Assembly: GCA_964590575.1 (NCBI GenBank) | Contig: CAZPWM010000001.1 | Span: 1 to 64,000 of the forward strand | Source of the DNA: an uncultured archaeon | GTDB taxonomy: Archaea > Asgardarchaeota > Thorarchaeia > Thorarchaeales > Thorarchaeaceae | Reading direction: 5' to 3' | DNA length: 64,000 nucleotides | Shown here: piece by piece, positions 32,681 to 34,810 of the stretch | Position numbering within the stretch: position 1 is the stretch's first letter | Layout of the letters: the number at the start of each line of letters is the position of its first letter | Program-made: the position numbers and the translations under genes | The notes under the pieces: model-generated | Seen by the model: the letters and a program-made list of their open reading frames with translations, nothing else | What the model was told of the DNA's origin: nothing | Databases searched by the model: none

Positions 32681-34810
32681 GTGAAGAGAGATCTGGCAAA
32701 CGCGTTCATAATTGGTCTGATACTGCTTTCAGCTATCCCCATCTATTTCGCAGATAGCACACCGAGCCAATCAGTTGAGGTCAATCTAGATAGTGTCCTA
32801 GTAGATGTTATGGTACTTCAAAATGGACGAATCAATGTCACTTACTGGATTACTATCACAGTTTTATCAGGAACTCTCAACGAGTTTGACCTTTTCGGAA
32901 TCCAAGAAACCACGATTTATGACACTGATCGCGCGTATGCTGAAGTAGGAGAAAATCGTTACAGTTTACTTGTTACAAAAATGTCGAGTGGATACACACT
33001 GAGGTTATCACAGAGTGTTTCTGCAGTGAACACTGTGACTGTTGTCTTTGGTTACTACAGTACGAATCGAATCATAGAGAAAACAACATCTGGCACTTAT
33101 GGAGATCTTGGAGTTTTCAATTGGGCACCGGTCCAATGGGAGATCCCTATTGACTATGAAGCAGTCCAGGTCATCTATCCTATCGAAATGAATGCGTCAT
33201 GGATTGAACCAAGTAATGGCGTTACTACTGAAGGCGCTGAGTTCGCTGGTTATGTCGTAGATGCCAATCAAGGTCTATGGGATGGAAGTCTCTTCGAGAA
33301 CTTCGAGGAAGAGAATCTTCTAGCGTATCCGTATAGTGCCTCGGCTGATCCTCGCTACTTTACAGTTAGTCTAGGTCACACAAATATTGGAGATTATGAT
33401 CATTTTAGGGTTTTTCACTACACTAACTGGAGCTTCTACGAACCATATCTTGAAGCTGGTGCTCTTGGTATCGATTATGTTCCGATAATCAATGTTAACG
33501 CAGATACGCTGTTTAACCTGCAGCTTGCCGTTTTCAACTATGGTGATGCTAACTTAGAGGATGTGACAATTACTATGTCTTTGCCCGAAAATCTCACACT
33601 CACGTCTGGGTCTGTGACGACACTTGTGGGAGATTTATCAGGTGGAGAAACATGGTACGAGTCTTACTCACTCATCCCTGCTAATGTTCCGGCTATCCTT
33701 ACGATAGCTTTCCAAGTGAGTGCATCAAATCTGAACGCAACTGATTGGCTCACATTCACAATTGATGTATATGTCCAGGAGTATATTCCTCCGTTGATTC
33801 CGCCGAATCTGCTATTTGGAGGAGCCGCCATTGTTATTGCTCTAGGTTTCATATTCTATGGCTACAGGAGAGTCACTCGTACCTATGGTGCAAAATGGGA
33901 GGCTGATGATACAACCTATACCTATGAGAGTCCTGAGATAGCGATACAGACATTCGGAGAGCCGGGAACGGTTGCAGAACTGGATCCAATCGAATCTGCA
34001 TTCTTCATCAATACAACGCGACAAAAACTCGTGTCAATGATTCTCATGTCTTGTGTCAGAAAAGGCGCAGTTCGAGTTTTATCCACAGATCCTATGAAGC
34101 TCTCGGTGACAGGTCTTCAATTCCAAGACTTGACATATTATGAAGAGCTGTTTCTAGCAGCGATTGTTGATGATGAGCTCGACCCTGAGAAAGTAGATGA
34201 CTTGCTTGAAGAGCTTGCTGACAAAGTTCAGGAGAAAGCATGGAGTGCAGACTTTGAGGCTACTAAGACACAGCATGACGAGATGATCGATGGGGCATGG
34301 GAAGAGTTAGAATCCTATCCAACACCGGATGACAGGATAGACTATTACTTCAATCGTCAATACCATGGAGGTGGTTGGGCTTGGTATTGGCTGTACATGA
34401 ATCCACGACATGATCACATCGGCGATGTCTTTGATAGACGTGGACCCTCCATCTCACCACCACAGGTTCCAGACTGGTTCTCTCAACTATCTGAGGCGAC
34501 AGGTCATGCTATTAGTGGTGTTGGTCGGGTAGTAGGTGATGTAGCGGCAACCACTGGTCAGATTATGAACAATGTTGCAAACACTATTGGTAGTGTCCTT
34601 GAAGGAGTAGGCAATATCATCACTGAACCACTAAAACCTCTTATTGAGAGTACCAGCAGATGTGTGTCACACGATGCATGTCATAGTGCTTGCGTTTCTC
34701 ATGATGCATGCCATAGTGCCTGTCACAGTGCTTGCCATAGTGCTTGTGTCTGTCATAGTGCGTGTCATAGTGCCTGTCACAGTGCGTGTGTTTCCGGGGG
34801 CTTTAGATAA
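32681..34810 (+). CDS. Single-pass membrane protein (DUF2207-like layout) with C-terminal Cys/His (CHSA)n repeat
   Basis: Signal-peptide-like N-terminus, sequon-rich ectodomain, one TM (LLFGGAAIVIALGFIFYGY-RR), cytoplasmic domain, and tail CVSHDACHSACVSHDACHSACHSACHSACVCHSACHSACHSACVSGGFR. Confidence 0.85.
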   Translation: MKRDLANAFIIGLILLSAIPIYFADSTPSQSVEVNLDSVLVDVMVLQNGRINVTYWITITVLSGTLNEFDLFGIQETTIYDTDRAYAEVGENRYSLLVTKMSSGYTLRLSQSVSAVNTVTVVFGYYSTNRIIEKTTSGTYGDLGVFNWAPVQWEIPIDYEAVQVIYPIEMNASWIEPSNGVTTEGAEFAGYVVDANQGLWDGSLFENFEEENLLAYPYSASADPRYFTVSLGHTNIGDYDHFRVFHYTNWSFYEPYLEAGALGIDYVPIINVNADTLFNLQLAVFNYGDANLEDVTITMSLPENLTLTSGSVTTLVGDLSGGETWYESYSLIPANVPAILTIAFQVSASNLNATDWLTFTIDVYVQEYIPPLIPPNLLFGGAAIVIALGFIFYGYRRVTRTYGAKWEADDTTYTYESPEIAIQTFGEPGTVAELDPIESAFFINTTRQKLVSMILMSCVRKGAVRVLSTDPMKLSVTGLQFQDLTYYEELFLAAIVDDELDPEKVDDLLEELADKVQEKAWSADFEATKTQHDEMIDGAWEELESYPTPDDRIDYYFNRQYHGGGWAWYWLYMNPRHDHIGDVFDRRGPSISPPQVPDWFSQLSEATGHAISGVGRVVGDVAATTGQIMNNVANTIGSVLEGVGNIITEPLKPLIESTSRCVSHDACHSACVSHDACHSACHSACHSACVCHSACHSACHSACVSGGFR
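34661..34795 (+). repeat. Degenerate 12-nt coding repeat TGY-CAY-AGT-GCN (CHSA)
   Basis: Seven CHSA units plus two CVSHDA units, with varied synonymous codons. Confidence 0.9.

Follow-up and report, generated by a model that had tools for sequence, protein, structure and literature searches.

Here we describe a cysteine- and histidine-rich protein tail that, judged from gene association and enzyme class, is probably the built-in substrate of a radical S-adenosylmethionine (SAM) enzyme encoded next to it, most likely for thioether cross-links. The tail forms the last 49 residues of a 709-amino-acid membrane protein (P0001) encoded in a 64,000-nucleotide stretch of DNA from an uncultured Asgard archaeon of the family Thorarchaeaceae (assembly GCA_964590575.1, contig CAZPWM010000001.1, positions 1 to 64,000), hereafter the window. 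The neighbouring enzyme combines a recognition element of the kind found with peptides that are made on ribosomes and modified after translation (RiPPs), termed RRE, with a radical SAM core and a SPASM domain, an architecture known for making small antibiotic-like peptides. In the system described here, an uncurated clade of such enzymes is tightly tied to a large membrane protein's cytoplasmic tail, and if the tail is modified as we propose, the result would be a new and widespread protein modification.

A repeat-built tail on a single-pass membrane protein

The tail gene lies at 32681..34810 on the + strand, and 61 of the 85 genomes from the window's own taxonomic family carry an orthologue. 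Its codons 661-709 (34661..34807, + strand), followed by a TAA stop codon (34808-34810), read CVSHDA-CHSA-CVSHDA-(CHSA)3-CV-(CHSA)3-CVSGGFR. An earlier reading made from the letters alone (the sequence-only reading) had given this formula, with 11 cysteines and 9 histidines in 49 residues, and the translation of the open reading frame (ORF) agrees with it; the whole protein has 12 cysteines, of which 11 are in the tail. The tail is built at two levels: the unit CVSHDACHSA is present twice, as is a 14-residue block, CHSACHSACHSACV, whose copies stand back to back as tail residues 17-30 and 31-44, and the C-terminus is SGGFR. In a six-frame translation of the source genome (3.40 Mb in 194 contigs, GC 43%, 91% complete), the tail is the only occurrence of the pattern (CH.A){3,}.

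P0001 has no match above cut-off in Pfam or NCBIfam, and nor do its distant homologues. Hydropathy identifies two hydrophobic segments. The first, an N-terminal signal or anchor segment (residues 3-27; 32687..32761, + strand; hydropathy maximum 2.16), coincides with a helix at residues 2-23 in an AlphaFold2 model built from 38 aligned homologues (mean predicted local distance difference test score (pLDDT) 77). It is followed by predicted extracytoplasmic β-sandwich domains (residues 30-369; 32768..33787, + strand; pLDDT mostly >85; weak DUF11 match) and by the second segment, a single transmembrane helix (residues 371-395; 33791..33865, + strand; hydropathy 2.04; modelled as a helix at 375-399). 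The remainder up to the tail is a cytoplasmic domain and linker (residues 396-660; 33866..34660, + strand), modelled as helices and two short strands at 436-583 (pLDDT 76-90) and a long helix at 621-646; Y415, P418, E438, P471, Y487, T528, P597 and W599 are invariant across all the tail types described below. Because the 15 residues before the transmembrane helix contain no lysine or arginine and the 15 after it contain three, the C-terminal part, including the tail, is predicted to be cytoplasmic. A cytoplasmic enzyme could thus reach the tail.

The tail is maintained as protein

A search with P0001 over 400 genomes of the Asgard phylum returned matches in 79, including the 61 of the window's family. 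We compared the tails of 36 loci of that family (L001-L030 and L040-L045). In 28 of these the tail is identical to that of the window, although whole-protein identity among the family's orthologues drops to 52-86%; six further tails differ by one substituted residue and one by three. A single locus lacks one ten-residue unit, and the number of units is constant in the other 35. Across 29 orthologous loci, by contrast, every one of the 49 tail codons shows synonymous variation, with at least two codons each, and at seven positions serine is encoded by both the AGY and the TCN codon families. By the Nei–Gojobori method (NG86; 406 pairs), the proportions of synonymous and non-synonymous differences are 0.90 (pS) and 0.031 (pN) in the tail, compared with 0.78 and 0.159 in the 45 codons upstream, and the tail's pN is mostly due to serine codon-family switches. 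In 29 rows of an alignment of 38 homologues (A1, which omits one masked row, one fragment, one row missed by the script and six that were near-redundant or extended at the N terminus), no other 49-residue segment of the protein is as conserved as the tail (98.7% identity); residues 417-465 come second (86.7%).

The DNA does retain a 12-nt and a 42-nt periodicity, and ORFs are open over the tract in two other frames (34644..34859, +; 34667..34855, −), as a functionless slippage tract or a constraint from an overlapping gene or RNA might predict. Tandem Repeats Finder, however, detects only diverged repeats in the tail DNA (period 12 at 80% matches, period 42 at 84%), and because third positions vary freely while residues are fixed, the constraint lies on the amino acids and not on DNA, RNA or another frame. 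We give this explanation practically no chance; codon variation and constant unit number refute an origin by slippage or an overlapping frame. Together, these data strongly support purifying selection on the tail at the protein level. The sequence-only reading had proposed exactly this, together with the absence of recent DNA slippage, and both proposals hold: 28 of 36 tails are identical while synonymous sites are saturated, and the DNA copies are just 80-84% alike. Such invariance would be expected of a core peptide recognized by an enzyme, or of a precisely cross-linked structure.

A protein-database search returned seven relatives of P0001, named as Thorarchaeota proteins. All seven end at or before the start of the tail, six of them at contig ends and the seventh (P0002, 636 amino acids) at an in-frame TAG. 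This TAG is found in the orthologue L008 (G358:C156), 68 codons before the end in the context ...SVL*GVG... (near window position 34600), and P0002 stops exactly there; beyond the TAG, the L008 tail is intact and identical to the window's. The TAG may reflect an error in sequencing, a nonsense mutation of very recent origin or a stop codon that is read through.

Tail types in a wider protein family

The layout of P0001 is shared by distant Asgard homologues, which carry related C-terminal tails. Some are of a CHxA type, in which histidine is followed by S, D, N, G or A. In one homologue (G130, part of whose ORF is masked), CHSA units pass into CACACACAGGGW; in others, a glycine-rich linker precedes CACACACAGCACACAGGGR at the end of the protein. 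Two end types can be distinguished among the relatives, CHxA or (Cys-Ala)n-GGGR. Searched against 1.84 billion representative proteins, a profile of A1 matched 992 sequence clusters at E ≤0.001 and 241 at E ≤1e-30, and we typed the tails of the 148 new proteins within the best 150 of the 992 matches. In this set, 115 of 148 end in Cys-Ala repeats, including a 10-cysteine variant with CVS punctuation, and 16 in CHxA repeats, plus one protein cut inside such a tail; the other 16 have no Cys tail and are mostly fragment-like. The number of cysteines in the last 45 residues ranges from 5 to 12 by tail type and is most often 7 or 10 within these best 150 of 992.

All tail types share the terminus C-[A/V]-[S/G]-G-G or a close variant, and the sole constants across them are the cysteines and a small residue before each cysteine; histidine varies. 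Relatives from the window's family out to bacteria have kept the tail, as protein-level maintenance predicts. The conservation of cysteine positions likewise extends to bacteria, and that of histidine positions is confined to CHxA-type tails. Hosts of the tail protein include Asgard archaea, Thermoplasmatota, Chloroflexota and other lineages, mostly uncultured, which we take to be anaerobic.

Two short metagenomic ORFs carry CHxA or CNSA repeats outside the membrane-protein family, in each case with no clear enzyme orthologue nearby: one of 157 amino acids (L165, 4480-4950, −) and one of 65 (L167, 4372-4566, +). They may be free-standing small versions of the tail or chance repeats.

A radical SAM enzyme accompanies the tail gene

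The proposed tail maturase is a 477-amino-acid protein encoded at 30688..32121 on the − strand, divergent from the tail gene. Pfam models detect a PqqD domain (PF05402, the RRE; residues 42-98; 34.0 bits, cut-off 23.4), a Radical_SAM domain (106.3 bits) and a SPASM domain (24.3 bits, cut-off 21.5); in the orthologue from Ornatilinea, the PqqD match (22.9 bits) is slightly below cut-off. Among 15 orthologues, the CxxxCxxC cluster motif (C136/C140/C143) is invariant. So is the SPASM pattern, defined here as Cx9-15Gx4C plus Cx2Cx5Cx3C (C364...G377...C382; C419, C422, C428 and C432). By motif, then, the enzyme belongs to the RRE-radical SAM-SPASM maturase class, as it has all three domains. An RRE and a SPASM domain with two clusters are typical of enzymes that cross-link peptides. 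No NCBIfam model came near its cut-off (AhbD 146 of 500 bits, PqqE 133 of 381, StsB 113 of 625, ACGX (TIGR04340) 100.6 of 400). The nearest solved structures by sequence are SkfB (6e-19), a thioether former, and PqqE (8.7e-19).

The enzyme gene is found beside the tail gene at most loci across the family. At 28 of 29 loci of the window's family, compared manually, it lies at most about 1 kb from the tail gene on the same contig and on the opposite strand, and the lone exception is at a contig end. An enzyme orthologue (30-48% identity) is also nearby at 12 of 13 distant Asgard loci, where its placement differs from that in the window: immediately downstream on the same strand, downstream at a distance of about 1 kb, or upstream. 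A scan of species-representative genomes for the Cys-Ala tail gave 66 confirmed loci. At 60 of them the enzyme profile finds a match (224-502 bits), which in most cases begins close to or right at the stop codon of the tail gene; of the six exceptions, two lack the length to show an enzyme. These loci are mostly from Chloroflexota/Anaerolineae, including the cultured Ornatilinea apprima, with further bacterial hosts in Fermentibacterota, Aminicenantes, Hydrogenedentota, Acidobacteriota and one delta-proteobacterium, and archaeal hosts in Methanomassiliicoccales and other Thermoplasmatota, Nanobdellota, and Heimdall- and Hodarchaeota. In four of four genomes tested in which the two genes are not adjacent, an enzyme orthologue is encoded elsewhere (412-497 bits, next-best paralogue ≤96).

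Metagenomes gave a similar picture. A scan for (CHxA)3C produced at least 120 matches, and we examined 80 of these loci: 56 are C-terminal tails of the family, 18 are unrelated simple repeats and 6 lack an ORF of at least 40 amino acids. Among the matches listed, family loci with at least 1500 nt downstream carry the enzyme in 35 of 40 cases at ≥300 bits and in 38 of 40 at ≥100 bits, always downstream and on the same strand as the tail gene. Beside the unrelated CHxA-like repeats among these matches, the enzyme was found in none of 18 cases.

We then compared the occurrence of the two proteins in the 400 Asgard genomes, using thresholds of E ≤1e-60 for the enzyme profile (141 genomes) and E ≤1e-15 for the tail-protein profile (133 genomes). 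By manual comparison, both are present in 127 genomes, the tail protein only in 6, the enzyme only in 14 and neither in 253, counts to which we attach no P value because related genomes are not independent. Counted by taxonomic family, the two proteins are both present in 13 and both absent from the remaining 20 scored families. Completeness is 52-93% among the 20 discordant genomes, and in the several that we checked the matches lie at contig ends (for example in G355, G359, G391, G148 and G150); family f14 accounts for nine enzyme-only genomes, which may contain tail proteins scoring below the tail-profile threshold.

The two tail types are also mirrored in the enzymes. In a FastTree phylogeny of 105 enzymes, comprising the window's enzyme and the matches that cover at least 380 profile positions, the 41 enzymes encoded beside CHxA tails and the 60 beside Cys-Ala tails fall without exception on opposite sides of a single branch (support 100), and the four rows that our script left unclassified are placed as their own tails predict. 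Tail type changes once on this tree, compared with at least 25 times in 200 label shuffles. Asgard hosts occur on both sides of the branch, so the split follows tail type and not host; G311, from the window's own order, has a Cys-Ala tail and a Cys-Ala-type enzyme. Each enzyme type has thus been inherited jointly with its tail type across host lineages.

The tail as a putative enzyme substrate

We propose that the CHSA tail serves as the cytoplasmic C-terminal 'core peptide' of a large single-pass membrane protein. The PqqD-like domain would dock on the cytoplasmic part of the tail protein, and the radical SAM site, aided by two auxiliary Fe-S clusters, would abstract hydrogen atoms in the tail, so that its cysteines acquire a fixed pattern of covalent modifications. 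The bridges would most likely be intramolecular thioethers (sactionine or ranthionine) to neighbouring small residues, and the end product would be a rigid structure of defined form at the membrane's inner face; in effect, a RiPP-like maturation at the cytoplasmic end of a membrane protein. Among the candidate chemistries, thioether bridging is the one we tentatively favour.

The sequence-only reading had left a choice between thioether cross-links, histidine cross-links and a polymetallic tail. The near-universal link to an RRE-radical SAM-SPASM enzyme favours enzymatic modification, and histidine chemistry does not stand up family-wide: (Cys-Ala)n tails, which have the same partner enzyme, contain no histidine, serine or aspartate. 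Histidine cross-links or ligands therefore cannot be the family's common chemistry, and histidine, serine and aspartate are not conserved acceptors. In this view, CHxA-type histidines were added in certain lineages and are not what the conserved chemistry targets; they may provide metal ligands in the finished tail.

Several points weigh against the proposed enzyme–substrate relationship or its chemistry. Genomic association and enzyme class are the evidence from which we infer the modification, and thioether chemistry is a guess by analogy. The tree split and the co-occurrence argue for a functional pair and not specifically for an enzyme and its substrate, because adjacent genes share history; the groups on the tree were sampled through tail-motif scans, and the genomes behind the co-occurrence count are in part related and so not independent. 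The enzyme gene is missing from the vicinity at five loci: L052, L054 and L108 from genomes, which have room for it, the distant Asgard locus L036 and the metagenomic L168. The best curated matches of the enzyme, all far below cut-off, are the tetrapyrrole enzymes AhbD and NirJ2. The only acceptors that all tail types could share are alanine, valine, serine and glycine. AlphaFold2 models the tail at a pLDDT of about 30, with no confident fold by itself, and a Cys/His-rich sequence would also suit a metal site.

Plain metal binding is accordingly the main rival, although we consider it unlikely. The tail would then be an unmodified, membrane-tethered and metallothionein-like module for Zn, Cu, Ni or Fe-S, and the radical SAM gene would be linked to it in some other way, for example by using or loading clusters or by acting on a small molecule. 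Eleven cysteines and nine histidines in 49 residues do face a reducing cytoplasm, CxC and CxxxC strings are typical ligands of thiolate clusters, AlphaFold2 models no fold for the tail in the absence of a ligand, and the best sub-threshold curated matches of the enzyme are cofactor enzymes. However, metal-sponge tails are usually variable in length and composition, whereas this one is fixed down to its serine, alanine, valine and aspartate residues; the histidines are missing from the (Cys-Ala)n sister tails that keep the same partner; cysteine counts vary by tail type, with no fixed cluster stoichiometry evident; and the enzyme has a peptide-recognition (PqqD/RRE) domain.

A second rival, quite improbable in our view, accepts the tail as a substrate and replaces the thioether bridges with metal-chelating heterocycles (for example, thiooxazoles, as an oxygen-free counterpart of the action of oxidative enzymes that depend on multinuclear non-haem iron (MNIOs) on bufferins) or with methylation, formylglycine or dehydroalanine. 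The association evidence is the same as for thioethers. A sister enzyme weakly matches the NCBIfam radical SAM 'thio(seleno)oxazole' maturase SbtM (82.5 of 350 bits), the cassettes of Chloroflexota add a methyltransferase and a second radical-SAM-like gene, and membrane proteins of family TIGR04222 with Cys-bearing C-terminal tails show a genetic link to MNIO enzymes (PMC12452194). An oxygen-free chemistry would also suit the hosts, mostly uncultured lineages that we take to be anaerobic. Set against this, the SbtM, anSME and methylase-type radical SAM families all score below cut-off, and Pfam detects no methyltransferase among the nine neighbouring proteins at the window's locus.

The attachment of several c-type haems to overlapping CX3CH motifs (C-HSA-CH) is very improbable. 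CX3CH is a rare variant of the haem-attachment motif, and the nearest curated families of the enzyme, at sub-threshold scores, are haem enzymes; haem attachment, however, is extracytoplasmic, the tail lies on the predicted cytoplasmic side, and the sister tails with the same partner have no histidine. The sequence-only reading had already remarked that the resemblance to haem motifs is superficial, correctly so: the tail has CX3CH spacing only, with no CXXCH. We rejected a c-type cytochrome on this spacing and on the position of the tail on the cytoplasmic side of a single transmembrane helix.

A more far-reaching version of the substrate proposal, which we regard as doubtful, is that the enzyme turns the cysteines into thioether or heterocycle units arranged as a fixed ladder. 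Such units, with the CHxA histidines, would make up a covalent metal- or redox-active site at the inner membrane face. This would be an oxygen-free counterpart of the MNIO and bufferin chemistry on a receptor-like protein with an ectodomain of Ost1/ribophorin I fold, and it would convert something sensed on the outside into a metal or redox signal within the cell. If true, a RiPP-type modification would here act for the first time as a lasting functional group on a membrane receptor, and would do so in anaerobic bacteria and archaea alike.

Neighbouring genes

The other genes around the pair are lineage-specific. Between the enzyme gene and the tail gene, the window encodes a 134-amino-acid protein with no Pfam or NCBIfam family (32225..32629, +), which BLAST found at six of six further loci of the same family and at none of 13 distant loci. 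A metallophosphoesterase gene (34811..35566, +; Metallophos 49.4 bits) abuts the stop codon of the tail gene, with a possible TTG start directly after the TAA (TAATTG, 34808-34813), and the lack of a gap suggests that the two genes are co-transcribed. This neighbour occurs at four of the six further family loci; because it is absent by BLAST from the 13 distant loci, it is lineage-specific and stands outside the conserved pair. Further downstream, a 409-amino-acid protein with no Pfam or NCBIfam family (36042..37271, +) has counterparts at five of the six further family loci and at none of the 13 distant ones by BLAST; it holds an HExxH-like stretch, HEYEHH, and might be a metalloprotease. On the other side, beyond the enzyme gene, lies a gene for a D-serine-dehydratase-like protein with an alanine-racemase fold (PF01168 and PF14031; 28921-30072, −), present at three of the six further family loci.

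The Chloroflexota cassettes are larger. In Ornatilinea apprima (L091, 5599-11049), genes for a 124-amino-acid small protein and the tail protein are followed by those for the enzyme, for a second radical-SAM-like protein and for a methyltransferase, and other cassettes (L055-L101) likewise add the small protein upstream, the second radical-SAM-like protein and a class-I methyltransferase. The second radical-SAM-like protein, of about 386 amino acids, follows the enzyme and scores 150-200 bits against the enzyme profile.

Comparison with known systems

In curated families and in the literature searched, a scope that most subscription journals fell outside, we found no description of the tail, the pairing or its function. 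The tail-motif strings were absent from the full texts searched, the combination of 'CXXX repeat' and radical SAM returned no papers, and the titles and abstracts of the papers listed for DUF2207 mention no such tail.

The membrane protein itself resembles DUF2207 (PF09972) proteins and Ost1/ribophorin I in having a signal segment, a β-sandwich ectodomain, one transmembrane helix and a cytoplasmic part. One orthologue (L041) scores 21.0 bits against the DUF2207 N-terminal domain, for which the Pfam cut-off is 24.4, and P0001 has no match at E ≤0.01. Structural likenesses were taken from domain-level alignments, and whole-model Foldseek alignments (root mean square deviation (r.m.s.d.) 20-37 Å) were set aside. 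Ectodomain residues 30-251 (window 32768-33433) align with the luminal domain of Ost1/ribophorin I (7oci_A) at Z 17.1 and an r.m.s.d. of 3.0 Å over 186 residues; across the yeast Ost1 and human ribophorin I alignments, the values are Z 15.7-17.1, 2.9-3.0 Å, 183-187 residues and 8-12% identity, and this likeness ranks above that to the N-terminal domain of M1 aminopeptidases (Z about 13). Residues 261-369 resemble an alpha-2-macroglobulin-type domain (Z 12.3). The overall layout of ribophorin I, with an ectodomain, one transmembrane helix and cytoplasmic helices, matches as well. Because the protein family is also present in bacteria, an Ost1-like ectodomain need not be a eukaryote-like signature. 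We know of no Cys tail or radical SAM partner for DUF2207 proteins or for Ost1/ribophorin I. If our proposal is true, it would offer a first functional handle on a large family of 'hypothetical' DUF2207-like membrane proteins, including those in the closest archaeal relatives of eukaryotes.

Another membrane-protein system has a similar gene arrangement. According to PMC12452194, TIGR04222 membrane proteins have an unstructured, Cys-studded C-terminal tail and are encoded beside an MNIO (DUF692), a Cys-modifying enzyme of RiPP type. In both systems, a membrane protein with a Cys tail is thus encoded next to an enzyme of a Cys-modifying type. The TIGR04222 tails, however, are predicted to be periplasmic and Gly/Ser-rich, their proteins are multi-pass, and MNIOs are oxygen-dependent whereas radical SAM enzymes are oxygen-sensitive. 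P0001 has no match to TIGR04222 in NCBIfam at E ≤0.1, and Pfam detects no DUF692 among the neighbours. By analogy, the tail and its radical SAM enzyme could be an oxygen-free counterpart of the MNIO–TIGR04222 link.

Period-4 cysteine repeats have precedents among predicted radical SAM targets. Haft is said to have defined 'CXXX repeat' and 'ACGX repeat' target systems in silico (TIGR04117/TIGR04119 and TIGR04340, respectively), and the C-x-x-x and A-C-x-x periods of these systems are like those of our tails; their targets are short peptides. In the 91%-complete source genome, the CXXX-repeat models gave no match at E ≤1 (TIGR04117) or at E ≤0.001 (TIGR04119), and the window's enzyme, at 100.6 bits against a TIGR04340 cut-off of 400, is not a member of the ACGX system.

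In domain order, RRE, radical SAM core and SPASM, the enzyme resembles SkfB (PDB 6efn) and also AlbA, CteB and PapB, the maturases of sactipeptides and ranthipeptides, and CxxxC-spaced cysteines are typical of some sactipeptides. It differs from SkfB-type maturases in that all family scores are far below cut-offs and that the product would stay on a membrane protein. Whereas a classical sacti- or ranthipeptide derives from a short precursor, the Cys repeat here is the end of a 709-amino-acid membrane protein; no short precursor gene was seen, and Pfam finds no peptidase or protease and no ABC (ATP-binding cassette) exporter among the nine neighbouring proteins.

To our knowledge, the cross-linking of a whole Cys-rich protein by such an enzyme was first shown only in 2026. 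That system, CrpC/CrpA (TIGR04463), is the closest precedent. As described in PMC13692751, CrpC, an RRE-radical SAM-SPASM enzyme of Methanococcus voltae, installs ranthionine bridges on the Cys-repeat protein CrpA, in which a 17-residue motif recurs ten times and which has C-X-X-Q/D acceptor motifs. The likeness lies in an RRE-radical SAM-SPASM enzyme encoded beside a Cys-repeat protein and not a short peptide, and the cysteines modified in CrpA are C-terminal, like those of the tail. Against the TIGR04463 model (CrpC, rSAM_vs_C_rich), however, the window's enzyme reaches 51.2 bits of the 525 required, in a match confined to the radical SAM core, and unlike CrpA, the candidate substrate here is a 49-residue tail on a 709-amino-acid single-pass membrane protein, with no glutamine and two aspartates. 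That report filters Cys-rich proteins at ≥5% cysteine for those >250 amino acids, so P0001, at 1.7% cysteine, would fall outside the filter; the group-3 Cys-repeat proteins described there could include relatives. Radical SAM maturation of a Cys-rich protein is thus already known. What is new here is that the enzyme belongs to a different clade, that the invariant tail sits on a membrane protein resembling a receptor and that tails come in two or three dialects, and this combination would offer enzymologists a clean test case: an invariant 49-residue candidate substrate together with its cognate enzyme.

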